Sequence record: MK295203
DNA length: 64,000 nucleotides
Direction: 5' to 3' (one strand)
Source: Escherichia phage vB_EcoM_005
Shown here: piece after piece, positions 2,730-57,210 of the stretch
Position numbering within the stretch: the first letter of the stretch is position 1
Layout: every line of letters starts with the position of its first letter
Made by a program: the position numbers and the translations under genes
The notes under the pieces: model-generated
What the model was told of the DNA's origin: nothing
The model's input: the letters and a program-made list of their open reading frames with translations, nothing else
The model's database searches: none

Positions 2730-3422
<693 letters not shown>

Positions 3423-3494: not shown

Positions 3495-3719
3495 ATGAAA
3501 ACTTATCAAGAATTTATTACCGAAGCTAAAAGACATGAAGATGAACTGCCAATTGTTACAAAAACCTTTGATGGCACACTGGCTGATTTTAAAAAAGTCC
3601 CTAGTGATAAGCTTGCTAAATTGACTGGCTCTATCAATGAAAAAGGTGGCAAGGTCACGTTTTCTGCTGGCGGCATAGCCAATCTTAAAAAACTTTTGAA
3701 AGCCGCTGGCGCTGAATAA
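3495..3719 (+). CDS. internal protein (IP)-like with capsid targeting sequence
   Basis: N-terminus MKTYQEFITEA matches the T4 IPI/IPII/IPIII capsid-targeting signal cleaved by the prohead protease; small basic protein. Confidence 0.7.
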   Translation: MKTYQEFITEAKRHEDELPIVTKTFDGTLADFKKVPSDKLAKLTGSINEKGGKVTFSAGGIANLKKLLKAAGAE

Positions 3720-3720
3720 A

Positions 3721-3993
3721 ATGAAATCATACCAAGAATTTATCACTGAATCTATTCTTAATGAAGAAGTAAAAATTAACAAATCTGTTAAGACCGTGAT
3801 TGATAATATAAATCATCTCTATAACATTGATTTGACTAATCACGTGACTTTAGGCAATAAGCGAAACTTTTTTGTTTTTGATACTTCAGAACTTGACCAG
3901 AATCAAATTAACAATATTGAACGTTTTGCTAATGAAAAAGGACTGCGTCACGAAACGGCTGGTTATAAAAAGTATGCAATTTATCTAAAATAA
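3721..3993 (+). CDS. internal protein (IP)-like with variant capsid targeting sequence
   Basis: N-terminus MKSYQEFITES; immediately follows previous IP-like gene. Confidence 0.6.
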   Translation: MKSYQEFITESILNEEVKINKSVKTVIDNINHLYNIDLTNHVTLGNKRNFFVFDTSELDQNQINNIERFANEKGLRHETAGYKKYAIYLK

Positions 3994-5043: not shown

Positions 5044-5310
5044 ATGTTAGTATTAAAATTAGCTTTTTATGACCCAGAAACCAAGACAACAACTACCAAA
5101 CGTTGTTCTATTTCATATGACTGCCAATTTGGCGAAGTTGAGACTGACGGCGAGCCCTTTATGGCAATTGCCGATAGCACATTCGCTAAACCAAAAATAA
5201 TTCCACTAGTTAACGCTGCGGCTTATCTGGTTGCTCCTGAAGAAATGACTTATCATACAATTCAGCACATGGCTAAAGACGATAATGCTCCTGCTGGATT
5301 TGTAATTTAA
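5044..5310 (+). CDS. hypothetical protein
   Basis: ORF after gaggtg SD; ends 5 nt before first tRNA. Confidence 0.45.
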   Translation: MLVLKLAFYDPETKTTTTKRCSISYDCQFGEVETDGEPFMAIADSTFAKPKIIPLVNAAAYLVAPEEMTYHTIQHMAKDDNAPAGFVI

Positions 5311-5315
5311 ATTAA

Positions 5316-5389
5316 GGCCCTGTAGCTCAATGGTTAGCAGCAGTCCCCTCATAAGGGAAAGGTTACCGGTTCAAATCCGGTCTGGGTCA
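5316..5389 (+). tRNA. tRNA with CAU anticodon (Met or lysidine-modified Ile)
   Basis: ggccctgtagctcaatggtt...ccggttcaaatccgg: acceptor stem, D-loop AATGG, T-loop TTCAAATCC, anticodon loop cuCAUaa; no encoded CCA. Confidence 0.7.
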
Positions 5390-5397
5390 TTAACTAC

Positions 5398-5472
5398 GTC
5401 CCGCTGGTGTAATGGATAGCATACGATCCTTCTAAGTTTGCGGTCCTGGTTCGATCCCAGGGCGGGATACCA
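5398..5472 (+). tRNA. tRNA-Arg (UCU)
   Basis: gtcccgctggtgtaatggatagc...ggttcgatcccagggcgggatacca: acceptor stem pairs, T-loop GGTTCGATCC, anticodon loop cuUCUaa, encoded CCA. Confidence 0.75.
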
Positions 5473-5707
5473 AATGAAGACTATTATATAGTCAAGCCGT
5501 CGTATGAAGGACTGATTACCAGCATTCACCGGCGCAACAAACAAGAAACCGGGTCGCTACCGGTAAGTCGTCGGACTGAAGTTCCCTGAATAAGGACTGG
5601 CATTAACAAATCTTTACGATCTGTTAACGTCCCCTTATCTCACAGCTGAAACGGCGCACCGAACACTTGCCTAGCAGGTGGAACCCCGACAAGGTTACCC
5701 TAGGTTA
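5473..5707 (+). ncRNA. candidate small stable RNA(s) downstream of the tRNA genes
   Basis: 235 nt, GC-richer than surroundings, no ORF over 30 codons, ends at a strong terminator; T4 encodes stable RNAs C and D at the equivalent position. Confidence 0.3.
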
Positions 5708-5708
5708 A

Positions 5709-5737
5709 AGGCCCTTCCGAAAGGTTGGGCCTTTTTT
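5709..5737 (+). terminator. rho-independent terminator
   Basis: aggcccttccgaaaggttgggcc + TTTTTT; identical 30-nt copy at 6853-6882. Confidence 0.75.
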
Positions 5738-5774
5738 GTATAAATAGATAAGTTAATTAACACAGGAAACAATA

Positions 5775-6248
5775 ATGAAAACTTACAATGAATTTTTGAA
5801 CGAAAGCGTTCTGACTGAAGCCTCCGCTTCAGATGTTCGCGCTGCAGCAACTGCTGCTATTAAAGCCGGTAAATATTCTTATAAAGATGCTTCTGATGAA
5901 TCTCGGTACAAGTTCTACGACGATATGAGAGCTGAAGGCTTTGTGGGTAACTATGTTACCACCGCCTGGAAAAGCATGGTTGCTTCTGGTGCAGCTTTCG
6001 AAAAAGCTTCTGGTAAACCCGCTCCTAAGGCCGACCCTAAAGCAGCACAAGAAAAAAATATTGCTAAAGGAATTATCTCTAAGTATGAAGCAATTCTTAA
6101 AGAGCTTTTAGTAATCAAAACAGAAGGCCAGAAACTGGCACGAGCACATAGCTTCAAAGATAATCCACATGCTCACGACTTAGAGTATGTTGAAGATATT
6201 CAGAAAATCATCAAAGACCGTATCTGGTCTGCTAAACAAATCAAATAA
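5775..6248 (+). CDS. internal protein (IP)-like with capsid targeting sequence
   Basis: N-terminus MKTYNEFLNESVLTEA; 157 aa, lysine/alanine rich. Confidence 0.6.
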   Translation: MKTYNEFLNESVLTEASASDVRAAATAAIKAGKYSYKDASDESRYKFYDDMRAEGFVGNYVTTAWKSMVASGAAFEKASGKPAPKADPKAAQEKNIAKGIISKYEAILKELLVIKTEGQKLARAHSFKDNPHAHDLEYVEDIQKIIKDRIWSAKQIK

Positions 6249-6250
6249 CG

Positions 6251-6273
6251 AAAGCCCCGTCTGGGGCTTTTTT
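6251..6273 (+). terminator. rho-independent terminator
   Basis: aaagccccgtctggggc + TTTTTT. Confidence 0.75.
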
Positions 6274-6292
6274 GGTTAACTTAGAGAAATAT

Positions 6293-6847
6293 ATGAAACT
6301 TTTAAAATATTTGAGTTGGGTTCTGTTGGTTCCACTGGATTTCATCTCTATGGTTCTGGCCGTTATCCTTGCGCCTTTTGTAGTTCCTTTCCATAATAAA
6401 AAGACCGGTAAATTGCCTTATGGCTTTGATTGGATGATGACATACGATAATCCAATTGACGGTGACAAAGGTCATATTAAACGTTGGGCTAAAATCAGGA
6501 AAATGCCGGGCGGTGTTTATCTCCAGAGGGTAGCTTGGCTATGGCGAAATAAAGCTTATAACTTTGCTTACCATAAACTTGGACGCGATTGTAGCTCAGA
6601 ATTCCATTATCGTGGTAATCCTGACGTTGAATCTGGTTCTCCTGATAAAGCTCATCATGGGTGGCTATGGATGTGGAATGATGAAGCATGGGGAGTCTTT
6701 GCTTCGGTTCCTTATCTTAAGGTTGGAGGTATTACCTTTTATCTTCGCGTGTACTGTGGTTGGAAACTTAAGAGTCTTTTGTCTCGTAAAATCCCTAAGG
6801 CTATGTTAGCCTTCCACATAAACCCGTTCCGGTTCTACAAGAACTGA
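6293..6847 (+). CDS. membrane protein, hypothetical
   Basis: N-terminal TM helix (LSWVLLVPLDFISMVLAVILAPFVVPF), Trp-rich soluble part. Confidence 0.5.
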   Translation: MKLLKYLSWVLLVPLDFISMVLAVILAPFVVPFHNKKTGKLPYGFDWMMTYDNPIDGDKGHIKRWAKIRKMPGGVYLQRVAWLWRNKAYNFAYHKLGRDCSSEFHYRGNPDVESGSPDKAHHGWLWMWNDEAWGVFASVPYLKVGGITFYLRVYCGWKLKSLLSRKIPKAMLAFHINPFRFYKN

Positions 6848-6852
6848 TTCTA

Positions 6853-6880
6853 GGCCCTTCCGAAAGGTTGGGCCTTTTTT
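6853..6880 (+). terminator. rho-independent terminator (repeat of 5709-5737)
   Basis: ggcccttccgaaaggttgggcc + TTTTTT. Confidence 0.75.
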
Positions 6881-6903
6881 GTTTCTAAAAGTTTAAAAAA
6901 GAT

Positions 6904-6932
6904 GTTTACACCTCCTTTAAACATGATACTAT
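6904..6932 (+). promoter_or_regulatory. T4-type early promoter
   Basis: GTTTACacctcctttaaacatgaTACTATagacctatcaa. Confidence 0.7.
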
Positions 6933-8486: not shown

Positions 8487-8832
8487 GCCTAGTAAAACCG
8501 ACCCTGGTTACGCATTAGCAGATTATGATATAGCTATTTCATTATTCCTCGGCATTGCTACTAGTATGGTTGCAGGGATAATTGGATTTCTTGTCGGCGG
8601 GATTATTAATGGTATGCCTCGCCATCCGTTTGAAGATATGAGCCTCGCGTGGATTTGGGTTCCAGCTTTAATAGGATACTTTATCCCAGTGGTCTTTGAT
8701 ATTACCCAAACCAATAAAATAAACAAGCCACGTAAAAAGAGATATGCTTTAGAGATGGCTAATTATAATGAGTATGTAAAACAAACCAAACGTAATGACC
8801 TTGAAACCTTTATTAAGGAATGTAAATCATGA
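8479..8832 (+). CDS. small membrane protein (C-terminal FIKEC motif)
   Basis: ATG overlaps upstream stop; two TM helices; ends ...ETFIKECKS. Confidence 0.5.
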   Translation: MYKPSKTDPGYALADYDIAISLFLGIATSMVAGIIGFLVGGIINGMPRHPFEDMSLAWIWVPALIGYFIPVVFDITQTNKINKPRKKRYALEMANYNEYVKQTKRNDLETFIKECKS

Positions 8833-9119
8833 ATAAAATTGAAATTGAAATCCCTGAATACAACAGCGCGCTGTCTGCAGAAAAGGCTATCTATGACCTG
8901 CTGGGTAAAGTAGACACCATCGAATCCAAATGTGAAGAAATCGCAGATGAATATGGTATTGAATTCAGCACAGGTGATTATGGTTCAGGCCGTACATATT
9001 ATCCTGTCGGTTATGAATGCTCCCAGTGGTTTAAAGATGAAATTGAAAACAACGGTGGTGAAGTTGAAAACGGCGTCGTTACAGTTGGTGCTTGGGTCTC
9101 CTCTTCAGCAATGTGCTAA
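8829..9119 (+). CDS. member 1 of tandem small-protein family (C-terminal GAWVSSSAMC)
   Basis: 96-aa acidic ORF; stop followed by taaGGAA and next start. Confidence 0.55.
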   Translation: MNKIEIEIPEYNSALSAEKAIYDLLGKVDTIESKCEEIADEYGIEFSTGDYGSGRTYYPVGYECSQWFKDEIENNGGEVENGVVTVGAWVSSSAMC

Positions 9120-9128
9120 GGAAACGCT

Positions 9129-9410
9129 ATGATGAATGATTACCGTAAAAATAAAGAACTGGCTGAAGCAGTAAATGATATCCATAAAGCTATTCGTCGT
9201 GCTGAGGAAATTGCAAACAAATATGAGACTCATTTTAATATATACCCTGCTCGCGGTATGGGCGGTGACTATTATTCTCCTGGCGCCTTGAAAGCCGACC
9301 TTGCCCACTGGGAAGAATACGGTGAAGCTCAGTATGCTATTGTAAACCAACATGATTACACTACCAGCCTAGAAAATGGTGGATGGGTGTCCTCTTCTTC
9401 TGAATGTTAA
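9129..9410 (+). CDS. member 2 of tandem small-protein family (C-terminal GGWVSSSSEC)
   Basis: 93 aa; same stop-SD junction tgttaaggaa. Confidence 0.55.
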   Translation: MMNDYRKNKELAEAVNDIHKAIRRAEEIANKYETHFNIYPARGMGGDYYSPGALKADLAHWEEYGEAQYAIVNQHDYTTSLENGGWVSSSSEC

Positions 9411-9419
9411 GGAATTATT

Positions 9420-9617
9420 ATGTCTCGTGAACTAGATTGTGCAATCCGTACTGCAGCCGCAGCTATTGAAAACGTTATCCAGATTTGTAAAGAAGAACGC
9501 GAAGAAGCTGATATCTATATCGATGGCGCTCGTGACCTAGAACGACATATCACGCTTTATAACGGTTGTATTACTATTAGTGGTACTTCCTGGGTATCAT
9601 CCTCTTACGAATGCTAA
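9420..9617 (+). CDS. member 3 of tandem small-protein family (C-terminal TSWVSSSYEC)
   Basis: 65 aa; junction tgctaaggaa. Confidence 0.55.
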   Translation: MSRELDCAIRTAAAAIENVIQICKEEREEADIYIDGARDLERHITLYNGCITISGTSWVSSSYEC

Positions 9618-9626
9618 GGAAATAAA

Positions 9627-9836
9627 ATGACTATTGATGAAATTGAAAAACAAATCCGCGAATTAGTACGTAAAGGCCAGTCCGTGGCTGACGAAACAGG
9701 TCAGCACTTCCACGCTGGAGGCGAAGAATATATTCCAGCTTCTAGTCCGGAATATGATGATTACGAATGGGCCCGTGATGATTACGGTATCCCAGATGGT
9801 GAAGGTTTCTGGTTTACATCCTCTATGTCTTGCTAA
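9627..9836 (+). CDS. member 4 of tandem small-protein family (C-terminal GFWFTSSMSC)
   Basis: 69 aa; junction tgctaaggtg. Confidence 0.55.
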   Translation: MTIDEIEKQIRELVRKGQSVADETGQHFHAGGEEYIPASSPEYDDYEWARDDYGIPDGEGFWFTSSMSC

Positions 9837-9846
9837 GGTGATAAAA

Positions 9847-10071
9847 ATGTCTGATATTAATGAATTAGAAAAAGCGGCACTTGAACTGGCTGCACTGTAT
9901 AAGAAAGTAAAAGATATGGCTTCTGCTCAGGATTTCCGTGTTGAGCTCGATGATTATGACGGTGAAGTTCGTCTCGAAGATTGGCTGAATAGCTCTTGTT
10001 ATGGTGAAGAAGCTGGTCGCACCTTCGTTGCTCAGGCCGATGGTAAAATCTGGTATCCTAGCTCATGCTAA
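9847..10071 (+). CDS. member 5 of tandem small-protein family (C-terminal KIWYPSSC)
   Basis: 74 aa from ATG at 9847; degenerate version of the tail motif. Confidence 0.5.
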   Translation: MSDINELEKAALELAALYKKVKDMASAQDFRVELDDYDGEVRLEDWLNSSCYGEEAGRTFVAQADGKIWYPSSC

Positions 10072-15512: not shown

Positions 15513-16109
15513 ATGAAAACGTATAAAGAATTTATCACCGAAGCTTCTGTAGGAAAGGTCCAAGGCATTAATAAAGATGAGTGGACTTACCGAGGAAACG
15601 GCGTTGACAAAATAGGAAACGGCTTTGACGCTAAAACAGCTCCTATTGAACGGTATTTAGCTACAAAGGCTTCCGATTTTAAAGCTTTCGCTTGGGAAGG
15701 ACTTCGCTGGCGTAACGACCTAAATATTGAAGCTGATGGGCTTAAATTTGGCCATATCCAAGATGTTGTTGCTAGTAACTTGGATGCAGCTTTTATTAAA
15801 GCCGACGGTGACCTTCGTCGCTGGAATTTAAAACTGTTCTCTAAACAGAAAGGTCCGGTATTTGTACCTAAAGCAGGTAAATGGACTATTGATAATAAAT
15901 TGGCTAAAGCGGTTAACTTCGCTGGTCTTGAATTTGCCAAGCACAAATCAGCATGGAAAGGTCTTGATACAATGGCTTTCCGTAAAGAATTTGCTGATGT
16001 TATGACTAAAGCCGGCTTTAAGGCAGAACTAGATACCTCTAAAGGTACGTTTAAAGACGCTAATATTCAGTACGCTTACGCCGTTGCTAATGCAGCCCGT
16101 GGTAATTAA
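15513..16109 (+). CDS. ipIII: internal protein III-like
   Basis: N-terminus MKTYKEFITEAS; 198 aa (T4 IPIII about 194 aa); located between e and denV as in T4. Confidence 0.7.
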   Translation: MKTYKEFITEASVGKVQGINKDEWTYRGNGVDKIGNGFDAKTAPIERYLATKASDFKAFAWEGLRWRNDLNIEADGLKFGHIQDVVASNLDAAFIKADGDLRRWNLKLFSKQKGPVFVPKAGKWTIDNKLAKAVNFAGLEFAKHKSAWKGLDTMAFRKEFADVMTKAGFKAELDTSKGTFKDANIQYAYAVANAARGN

Positions 16110-16137
16110 TAAAGCGATTTACCTTTAAAGGAAACAT

Positions 16138-16440
16138 ATGAAAACCTATCAAGAATTTATCACTGAAGCCCGCGTAACCGCAGGTAAATTAGAAGCCGCT
16201 GTAAATAAAAAGGCCCATTCATTTCATGATTTGTCAGATAAAGACCGTAAGAAACTTGTAAGCCTTTATATTGACAAAGAGCGTATTCTCGCTCTCCCGG
16301 GCGCTAATGAAGGTAAACAGGCCAAGCCTTTGAATTCTGTCGAAAAGAAAATTGATAACTTTGCTTCTAAGTTTGGTATGTCTATGGATGACCTTCAGCA
16401 AGCGGCTACCGAAGCAGCTAAAGCAATTAAAGGTAAATAA
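16138..16440 (+). CDS. ipII: internal protein II-like
   Basis: N-terminus MKTYQEFITEARV; 100 aa; leader shared with ipIII (tttacctttaaaggaa). Confidence 0.7.
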   Translation: MKTYQEFITEARVTAGKLEAAVNKKAHSFHDLSDKDRKKLVSLYIDKERILALPGANEGKQAKPLNSVEKKIDNFASKFGMSMDDLQQAATEAAKAIKGK

Positions 16441-16442
16441 CA

Positions 16443-16471
16443 GTTTACTTTTACAATAGCTGTGATATAGT
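16443..16471 (+). promoter_or_regulatory. T4-type early promoter
   Basis: GTTTACttttacaatagctgtgaTATAGT. Confidence 0.55.
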
Positions 16472-16500
16472 GTTCTCACACAAACATGGAGAACACTAAA

Positions 16501-16917
16501 ATGACTCGTATCAACCTTACCTTAGTATCTGAATTGGCTGACCAACACTTAATGGCTGAATATCGCGAATTACCACGTGTTTTCGGTGCAGTTCGTAAGC
16601 ATGTTGCTAATGGTAAACGTGTTCGTGATTTTAAAATTAGCTCTACTTTTATCCTTGGTACAGGCCATGTTACATTCTTTTACGATAAGCTTGAGTTCTT
16701 ACGTAAACGCCAAATCGAGCTTATAGCCGAATGTTTAAAACGTGGTTTTAATATCAAGGACACTACGGTCCAGGACATTAGTGATATTCCTCAGGAATTC
16801 CGTGGTGACTATACTCCACACGAAGCTTCTATTGCTATATCTCAGGCCCGTTTGGACGAAAAAATTGCACAACGCCCTACCTGGTACAAACATTATGGTA
16901 AGGCTATTTACGCTTAA
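16501..16917 (+). CDS. denV: endonuclease V, pyrimidine-dimer DNA glycosylase
   Basis: [41 protein letters not shown]... essentially identical to recalled T4 endo V over 138 aa. Confidence 0.95.
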
Positions 16918-16959
16918 TTAAATCCGTGATAGAATACTTCTATCAACTTAAGGAATAAT

Positions 16960-17259
16960 ATGAAAACTTATCAAGAATTTATTACAGAAGCCAAAGCTCC
17001 TAAAGCATTTCAAATTGGGGTTCAAGGCAATTTAGACCAAGAATATGTTGATGCTATTGTAGCAAGCCTCGGTAAACAGGGTGTACAAGTGGATTTGGTT
17101 GATTTTACCAAAGGTAATACTTTTAATATTGTTACGTCTAAAGGCTCTTTAGCTAAAGTTAAAAAGGCTTTTGGTGTAGCACAAGCCTACGAAATCGACC
17201 ACTCTGAATTAGAAAATAAAGGTCGCCAGAACACAATTAAAGGTTCTGGTTCTTTCTAA
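16960..17259 (+). CDS. internal protein (IP)-like with capsid targeting sequence
   Basis: N-terminus MKTYQEFITEAKAP; 99 aa; an extra IP relative to T4 at this locus. Confidence 0.6.
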   Translation: MKTYQEFITEAKAPKAFQIGVQGNLDQEYVDAIVASLGKQGVQVDLVDFTKGNTFNIVTSKGSLAKVKKAFGVAQAYEIDHSELENKGRQNTIKGSGSF

Positions 17260-56866: not shown

Positions 56867-57032
56867 GATTTCTGTATTCGAGTTATTCGAAGAATATGAA
56901 ATCGTATCAAAAGACCAAGAAGCTATCCATATTATTGCTGGTGATGGTGTGACTTGGATTATTCCACTGTACCACGAAGATACCTATGAAGTCACTGATG
57001 CAAATGGTGATAAAGCTATTTTCGTAATATAA
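56841..57032 (+). CDS. hypothetical protein
   Basis: 63 aa. Confidence 0.4.
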   Translation: MSAMCTGSKISVFELFEEYEIVSKDQEAIHIIAGDGVTWIIPLYHEDTYEVTDANGDKAIFVI

Positions 57033-57048
57033 ATAAGGCCAGGAGCCT

Positions 57049-57210
57049 ATGAAATCTTTTAAAGAAGTTATGAACGAAGATATGGTCGCAGGCGATGCAG
57101 GTGGTAATCCTACTGCTATTGCCTCCGGAACTACCTCAGGCGCAGTCGTCAACAAAGGGCCTGAACAAATCCCATCTAAAAAGCGTAAAGAAAAATCCGA
57201 AAACGAATGA
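57049..57210 (+). CDS. hypothetical small protein
   Basis: 53-aa ORF after SD aggag; in same frame as the downstream endonuclease fragment, separated by a single TGA. Confidence 0.35.
   Translation: MKSFKEVMNEDMVAGDAGGNPTAIASGTTSGAVVNKGPEQIPSKKRKEKSENE

Follow-up and report, generated by a model that had tools for sequence, protein, structure and literature searches.

A candidate capsid-targeted internal protein gene behind the tRNA genes of Escherichia phage vB_EcoM_005

Does the small open reading frame (ORF) behind the tRNA genes of Escherichia phage vB_EcoM_005 encode a protein that travels in the phage head, and, if so, how did its gene come to lie at a site that is empty in phage T4? 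The ORF occupies positions 5775–6248 (+ strand) of a 64,000-nucleotide stretch of sequence record MK295203, which was analysed at its full length and is referred to below as the window. We conclude that it probably encodes a late-expressed, basic protein of ~16 kDa that is directed to the head by a capsid targeting sequence (CTS), processed by the protease gp21, packaged and injected. In our judgement, it represents an unannotated family of T-even internal proteins (IPs) at a third locus, widespread and absent from T4. The gene and its 5' end are as follows.

Positions 5775–6248, + strand: CTS-bearing internal-protein-like gene, 157 aa, with a match to phrog_2280
Positions 5775–5819, + strand: predicted propeptide, made up of CTS residues 1–10 (MKTYNEFLNE) and then a second L-x-E motif, VLTE (residues 12–15)

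The ORF starts with ATG and its product begins MKTYNEFLNESVLTEA, which a preliminary description of this DNA had taken to be a variant CTS. Two analyses of the window bear this out. Firstly, a six-frame scan for the motif M-[KR]-[TS]-[YF]-x-[ED]-[FY] finds six ORFs that start in this way; for five of them the PHROG family carries the annotation internal virion or head protein, and the sixth is ORF 5775–6248. Secondly, all 564 Met positions with 50 or more open codons behind them were scored against MKTYQEFITEA with BLOSUM62. ORF 5775–6248 scores 41—far over the background of −1.4 ± 8.8—and ranks sixth, right behind the five IP-type ORFs (49–56), while the next-best candidate in the window reaches 23. 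Authentic T4 IPI (MKTFKEFTSTT...; MKTFKEFTSTTTPVSTITE↓A, the arrow marking the cleavage site) scores ~29 by hand calculation.

Seven of the ten CTS residues are those of MKTYQEFI(T/A)E, with L in place of I at position 8. According to a review of Black's work, the first ten residues of IPIII suffice for packaging, and amber-suppressor mutagenesis of IPIII places targeting mainly in residues 4 and 7 and processing in residues 8 and 10 (PMC9026906). All of these are kept in ORF 5775–6248, as Y4, F7, L8 (I in IPIII) and E10. We aligned 11 homologues from at least seven genera, which are 17–83% identical to the window protein and otherwise share 17–48% identity. Few columns reach a conservation of 90% or more, but F7, L8 and E10 do, and every homologue has Y or F at position 4. 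The 5' 48 nt of the gene are just 54–69% identical between lineages; that the key residues have been kept though this DNA has diverged indicates that the peptide, and not merely a DNA segment, is conserved. On this comparison of sequences, the N-terminus of ORF 5775–6248 is a true CTS variant. In the Serratia phage LC53 homologue (L009 1444–2007) the annotated start is probably 19 codons too far upstream; a CTS-like MKFKEFLSEG starts at an internal Met.

The EFLNES variant is shared exactly by the Jiaodavirus IpIV orthologue WKM80649 (MKTYQEFLNES...), the orthologues of PST and fD1 reading MKTYQEFITEA. WKM80649 has many peptide matches and is abundant in virion mass spectrometry (MS), so that the variant is compatible with packaging.

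Cleavage by gp21 is predicted at LNE↓S (residues 8–11) and/or LTE↓A (residues 13–16), that is, after E10 and/or E15. T4 cleavage sites prefer a small P1' residue. A propeptide of 15 residues would lie within the known range, since that of T4 IPI has 19 aa. The peptides expected directly behind the two cuts are SVLTEASASDVR (after E10) and ASASDVR (after E15) for the window protein, and AVLNEASSTEIQAVAK (after E10) and ASSTEIQAVAK (after E15) for its counterpart g140 in Yersinia phage fD1 (phiD1, HE956711).

The fD1 protein also provides a link to the virion. g140 has 157 aa, starts MKSYTQFLNEAVLNEA, adjoins e.8 and is 82% identical to the window protein. Liquid chromatography–tandem MS of ultracentrifuge-purified fD1 virions reports it as particle-associated ('PPAP'), and its neighbours g138 and g139 are unlisted in the same proteome (PMC8309999 Table S3). 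We read the capitalised 'PPAP' as the strict threshold of at least two peptides in all replicates.

When is the gene expressed? The signals around it, with the terminator hairpins assessed by direct folding, are these.

Positions 5707–5739, + strand: terminator 1, a hairpin (5707–5734) and T-run, ΔG −17.8 kcal/mol, z −3.3
Positions 5739–5746, + strand: late promoter box TATAAATA, an exact match to the T4 consensus, 28 nt before the ATG
Positions 5764–5767, + strand: Shine–Dalgarno sequence AGGA, 7 nt before the ATG, read from the sequence
Positions 6251–6270, + strand: terminator 2, a hairpin and T-run directly past the stop codon, ΔG −15.4 kcal/mol, z −3.6, unrelated to terminator 1

Terminator 1 is the 3' end of an rnaC-like RNA that follows the tRNA genes, and is homologous to the T4 rnaC terminator. 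Between it and the ATG at 5775, no sigma-70-like promoter was found. The late promoter box stands at the same position before the homologues of slur03 and T4_ev240 (Tequatrovirus), phiKp_22 (Jiaodavirus), MHG19 and JS98 (orf135), and as a variant matching at seven of eight positions in ABTNLsp5 and Shf125875; 8-mers like TATAAATA are not over-represented across the AT-rich window. From the lack of an early promoter, the terminator directly upstream and the presence of TATAAATA, we infer that ORF 5775–6248 is transcribed late only, as far as such signals can be read from DNA.

The full length of the protein (residues 1–157) matches phrog_2280 ('unknown function'; E 4.3e-55). The predicted mature product has 142–147 aa, a mass of 15.6–16.2 kDa, a pI of 9.2–9.4, a net charge of +5 or +6 and 14% Lys, a composition closely like that of the window's five other IPs. 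An AlphaFold2 model of the 157-aa protein, built on a shallow alignment and with a mean pLDDT of 71, has residues 1–15 (the propeptide) disordered, followed by three parts.

Positions 5823–5999, + strand: variable N-domain, residues 17–75, predicted three-helix bundle, pLDDT 80–92 over residues 18–75
Positions 6000–6035, + strand: linker, residues 76–87, Lys/Pro/Ala-rich and flexible, pLDDT below 50 at residues 82–87
Positions 6036–6236, + strand: conserved C-domain, residues 88–154, predicted long helical hairpin, pLDDT 60–76

Right after the linker, inside the ORF, lies an A7 tract (6051–6057) at which several independent database alleles are frameshifted, in both directions. One additional A gives ...QEKKYC* (P0007, T4_ev240) and one A fewer gives ...QEKISLKELS...KSF* (P0008 SfPhi01, P0011); both types retain just the CTS, the N-domain and the linker. 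These frameshifts could be homopolymer sequencing errors, or real slippage giving a short isoform.

How widely is the gene found? With tblastn, homologues were obtained in 509 phage records; in 466 the copy is near full length, and every one is labelled hypothetical. The carriers span at least seven genera of the Tevenvirinae and are Tequatro-, Mosig-, Dhaka-, Jiaoda-, Winkler- and Tegunaviruses, the Klebsiella kv_tblp5/F48 group and unclassified phages, and a more distant branch of the family occurs in phages of Klebsiella, Serratia, Erwinia, Yersinia, Kosakonia and Enterobacter. An exhaustive phmmer search (1.84 billion representatives) returned eight relatives only, T-even-type proteins or their truncated or chimeric fragments. 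Wherever tRNAs are annotated, the gene lies directly 3' of the tRNA cluster, with one ORF between in LC53; the genomes compared for this were slur03 (Tequatrovirus), Shf125875 (Mosigvirus), ABTNLsp5 (Dhakavirus), phiKp_22 (Jiaodavirus), the kv_tblp5/F48 group and LC53 (Winklervirus). The window allele is 98% identical to a metagenomic protein and 92% to one of Salmonella phage GRNsp7. Orthologues of 154–157 aa and 76–83% identity at the same locus include fD1 g140, RB32 ORF133c, vB_EcoM_112 e112_137 and PhAPEC2_134. In the records and literature searched, none of the orthologues was found described as CTS-bearing or as an internal protein, and no paper on RB32 ORF133c by name was found; the supplements of Silas et al. 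do not contain the sequence of ORF 5775–6248.

The two domains have diverged to different degrees. Compared with ABTNLsp5, a phage of the same genus with an e.6 gene 97% identical, the C-domain coding sequence is 98% and the N-domain only 65% identical in nucleotides. Across genera, the C-domain is 86–91% identical, against 69–74% for the adjacent e.6, and the N-domain is just 65–72% identical to other alleles, even in one genus; JS98 orf135 has an unrelated domain in the N-domain position. Seen against e.6, this contrast makes the N-domain an exchangeable, quickly diverging part on a conserved chassis, and by sequence the window allele has an N-domain variant of its own. A variable N-domain on a conserved C-domain is as expected for a protein that engages variable host targets.

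We turn to the question of how the gene came to this site. The preliminary description held that T4 has no IP gene here, and T4 (NC_000866) indeed has no gene between rnaC and e.8, just a 284-bp spacer; PST is also without it. By local BLAST, T4 equals slur03 minus 559 bp between two copies of the rnaC terminator (36 nt, 94% identical), and the lone T4 copy combines the left flank of copy 1 with the right flank of copy 2. The T4 comparison alone does not separate insertion from deletion. Loss in the T4/PST lineage is more parsimonious, because the gene occupies the site across genera. Judged by this distribution, the gene is therefore probably old at the site, T4 and PST being the ones that lack it.

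In the window, the gene is part of a longer unit that includes the following.

Positions 6294–6847, + strand: DUF7338 gene (ORF-finder start TTG 6272; PF24027, E 5e-63; phrog_2143)
Positions 6852–6882, + strand: terminator repeat copy 2, closing a two-gene unit of 1143 bp

A perfect 31-nt direct repeat (family D1, 100% identity; copy 1 at 5709–5739, copy 2 at 6852–6882) brackets 1143 bp that hold the CTS gene, its unrelated terminator and the DUF7338 gene. The hairpin core of the repeat occurs twice in 64 kb against none expected. Behind copy 2 there is a sigma-70-like early promoter (6905–6932) for the e.8 homologue. For the DUF7338 gene itself no promoter is recognisable; it starts ~24 nt past the terminator at 6251–6270. 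It is absent from the Tequatrovirus locus: Tequatroviruses have the CTS gene only, and T4 has neither gene. In JS98 the order is inverted, with terminator, TATAAATA and DUF7338 gene coming first, and terminator, TATAAATA, an identical leader and orf135 second.

The locus had been described as an independently acquired cassette bounded by terminators at 5709 and 6251. Both hairpins fold, and 'cassette' is apt, but the repeat-bounded unit runs to 6882 and holds a second gene; independent acquisition is not supported, since homologues occur in 509 records from many genera. Comparison across relatives finds the gene missing from T4 and PST, and otherwise widespread, behind the tRNA cluster where tRNAs are annotated, rather than private to this phage. 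We propose that terminator, late promoter and gene form a module, and that recombination between repeated copies of a terminator hairpin accounts for its gain, loss or change of order.

What would the product do? The upstream terminator would insulate the gene from the tRNA/stable-RNA transcript, and its own TATAAATA would drive late transcription. The precursor would enter the assembling prohead core via its N-terminal CTS, MKTYNEFLNE, and the prohead protease gp21 would remove 10 or 15 residues at LNE↓S and/or LTE↓A. The resulting basic, lysine-rich protein of ~16 kDa would stay in the DNA-filled head and be injected with the DNA. By analogy with IPI*, Ip2, Ip3 and Bas37_0260, its task would most likely be to neutralise a host defence at DNA entry, with the N-domain setting specificity. 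That the product is a packaged, processed internal protein we regard as likely; to the anti-defence role, drawn by analogy, we give slightly less than an even chance. The gene's dispensability and variability are typical of IPs: T4 and PST do without it, and its N-domain alleles vary.

Several observations weigh against this reading. For the product in this phage, packaging, processing and injection are predictions made from sequence, and the whole chain—late transcription, targeting, cleavage, injection and anti-defence role—is what we infer. The gene lies outside the ipI and ipII/ipIII hot-spots, which are typical though not strictly defining IP sites; it sits between the rnaC-like RNA and e.8, with the ipI locus ~1.8 kb upstream and ipIII ~9 kb downstream. 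Its regulation differs from that of the window's other IP genes, which lie behind sigma-70-like early promoters and not TATAAATA. Some alleles have unusual residues where gp21 is predicted to cut (FLMTE↓A and FLTE↓Q). The mature part gave no matches in PADLOC, Pfam or the PDB and is not like any known anti-defence protein, which makes the anti-defence role a matter of pure analogy; its fold matches are generic helical hairpins. The virion data are also of low specificity: the fD1 set comprises 672 host proteins and, out of 277 phage proteins, 113, with DenV, NudE and Vs among those reported, and therefore speaks for expression and particle association rather than encapsidation; we give the detection of g140 a likelihood ratio of ~2–3. 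Finally, the family is not among the proteins listed in the noisy virion MS tables of two Jiaodaviruses. The ValerieMcCarty negative is uninformative, since those Klebsiella phages are not among the tblastn hits and may not encode the family; in the UFV13 virion study, just four gel bands were analysed.

Three other explanations can be set against a packaged, processed and injected effector. The main alternative is a structural, DNA-associated role of the C-domain, which is compatible with an anti-defence role. In its pure form, the protein would be packaged via its CTS and act as a basic, helical protein of the head interior—a minor core or 'histone-like' component—that condenses or organises DNA or aids ejection. 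The mature product is indeed basic, with 14% Lys, and in the model a K/P/A linker leads into a long helical hairpin. Between genera, the C-domain is conserved to an unusual degree (86–98% nucleotide identity vs 69–74% for e.6), and T4 internal proteins make contact with DNA phosphates through their lysines (PMC3012670). However, the gene is dispensable, being missing from T4 and PST, its N-domain is hypervariable or swapped in close relatives, which fits an arms race better, and all CTS proteins characterised so far are restriction inhibitors. We consider a purely structural role unlikely.

A second possibility is that the protein goes unpackaged and acts in the cytoplasm late in infection, its CTS-like N-terminus being left over from recombination or part of a leader shared between genes. 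JS98 orf135, despite its other N-domain, has the same leader and, save for the one residue noted below, the same first 16 codons, so that the 5' end acts like a module exchanged by recombination; the gene is not at a classical IP locus, and the sole proteomic support comes from a data set of low specificity. Against this, the targeting and processing positions are kept across genera despite diverged 5' DNA and 17–48% protein identity, which points to selection on the peptide and not to inheritance of a DNA segment; the late promoter, the IP-like composition and the particle-associated orthologue also speak for packaging. A relic is, in our view, quite improbable. Lastly, a chance ORF or decaying pseudogene, as the database copies frameshifted at the A7 tract might suggest, is effectively refuted by conservation and peptide evidence: 466 of 509 records are near full length, the PHROG match has E 4e-55, promoter, Shine–Dalgarno sequence and terminator are conserved, and fD1 peptides were detected.

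Beyond the packaged internal protein itself, we offer a wider reading, more tentatively than the anti-defence role: (i) the site is a third T-even IP locus that extends across the subfamily, (ii) its product is a two-domain injected effector, (iii) T4 has lost the gene, and (iv) the terminator and late-promoter module is the late counterpart of the promoter-early stem-loops (PeSLs) described below. In such a two-domain effector, the C-terminal hairpin would give a common head, DNA or ejection function, and exchanged N-domains (the window, Mosigvirus and JS98 types) would retarget it to different host defences. Were this true, T4 genetics would never have found the gene because T4 lost it.

The locus matters for several reasons. 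CTS proteins studied so far act at DNA entry and help to set host range. Several hundred sequenced T-even-type phages, whose hosts are E. coli, Shigella, Salmonella, Yersinia and Klebsiella and which include many therapy candidates, carry the family. Its members are nevertheless annotated as hypothetical, and the model phage T4 lacks it; as a probable packaged protein, it adds a locus to catalogues of IP repertoires. T4 is a ready-made null background for this gene family, and the locus is a clean natural example of the gain, loss and reordering of modules through repeated terminators. One more CTS protein would not surprise a specialist; what makes it a testable lead is how widely the family occurs, that T4 lacks it, and the repeat-mediated dynamics of the modules.

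The surrounding DNA places the locus in context. The phage is closest to JS98-like Dhakaviruses, with best DNA matches over 5300–6900 of ~90–92% (E33, ABTNLsp5, 04086), and its + strand has the genes in the same order as the early strand of T4; e.8 and e.6 homologues lie downstream of the DUF7338 gene. Other features are listed here.

Positions 5316–5389, + strand: tRNA-Met
Positions 5398–5472, + strand: tRNA-Arg
Positions 3495–3993, + strand: two CTS genes (3495–3719 and 3721–3993) at the classical ipI locus, downstream of 57B/Acb1
Positions 15513–17259, + strand: three CTS genes (15513–16109, 16138–16440 and 16960–17259) at the classical ipIII/ipII locus, of PHROG internal virion/head families

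Counting ORF 5775–6248, six packaged proteins are predicted for this phage, the other five all of the form MK[TS]Y[QK]EFITE. Immediately upstream of the CTS genes at the ipI locus, the 57B homologue (2967–3422, + strand) is a clear Acb1 anti-CBASS 2H-phosphoesterase (PF23474, E 7e-59); known and candidate anti-defence genes thus cluster here. Rfam reports just the two tRNAs at the locus and has no family for rnaC- or rnaD-like RNAs. Compared with T4, the stable-RNA region (5473–5737) has a 67-nt insertion right after tRNA-Arg, followed by rnaD-like sequence. T4 rnaC is reduced here to its final ~75 nt, which carry the terminator; the greater part of it, the tRNA-like portion included, is absent.

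Two further observations concern other parts of the window. The next-best CTS-like score (23) belongs to the N-terminus of ORF 57028–57210 (53 aa, MKSFKEVMNEDMVAGDAGG..., phrog_1823, unknown function) and may be due to chance; this ORF starts 13 nt downstream of an exact TATAAATA on the early strand, and is followed by a truncated GIY-YIG-like ORF and the homologue of the gene 61 primase. At 8829–10071, five small tandem ORFs have similar C-termini (...WVSSSAMC, ...WVSSSSEC, ...WVSSSYEC, ...WFTSSMSC and ...WYPSSC), and seem to be paralogues arrayed in tandem, encoding small acidic proteins that share a conserved Trp-x-Ser-Ser-x-x-Cys tail.

How does ORF 5775–6248 compare with known systems? 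With T4 IPI, IPII and IPIII and with the Ip4–Ip12 series of other T-evens it shares a CTS with identical key residues, followed by an L-x-E or I-x-E motif and a small residue; like T4-type IPs, it is small, basic, lysine-rich and dispensable and differs widely among related phages, and T4 IPI has a similarly longer propeptide (19 aa, cut at ITE↓A). It differs from them in that its mature part resembles theirs neither in sequence nor in fold, in standing behind a late promoter only, and in having two domains with a swappable N-domain. Four CTS proteins have been characterised: IPI, Ip2 and Ip3 are inhibitors of GmrSD-type enzymes, each of a different one (PMC12373910; PMC9391042, preprint), and Bas37_0260 inhibits McrBC (10.1101/2025.11.20.689424). 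All four are type IV restriction inhibitors, and the CTS alone is their common feature (PMC12373910, 10.1101/2025.11.20.689424); no sequence or fold similarity of IPI*, Ip2, Ip3 or Bas37_0260 to the mature ORF 5775–6248 protein was found.

Two individual proteins can be compared as well. IpIV (PST ipIV, fD1 g129, ValerieMcCarty04 WKM80649) has the Jiaodavirus member with the MKTYQEFLNES variant; its mature protein is unrelated, and its gene is at the ipII locus. The idea that ORF 5775–6248 is IpIV, which also has 157 aa, was rejected because the mature sequences are unrelated. JS98 orf135 (205 aa) shares the late promoter, the leader and a nearly identical first 16 residues (MKTYNEFLNESVLNEA, one residue off), as well as the K/P/A linker. 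Its C-terminal hairpin is related and contains a DTPDLY motif; its N-domain is unrelated, and its order relative to the DUF7338 gene is inverted.

At the level of the locus, the nearest likeness is to PeSL cassettes (Arbiol et al. 2010, Comeau et al. 2014; PMC2839356, PMC4122927). There, too, repeated stem-loop terminators beside promoters flank accessory genes in a hyperplastic region, insertion, deletion and reordering proceed via recombination between copies, and indels end in repeats. The difference lies in the promoter: here the terminator is combined with the late promoter TATAAATA, and an early sigma-70 promoter stands behind the downstream copy only.

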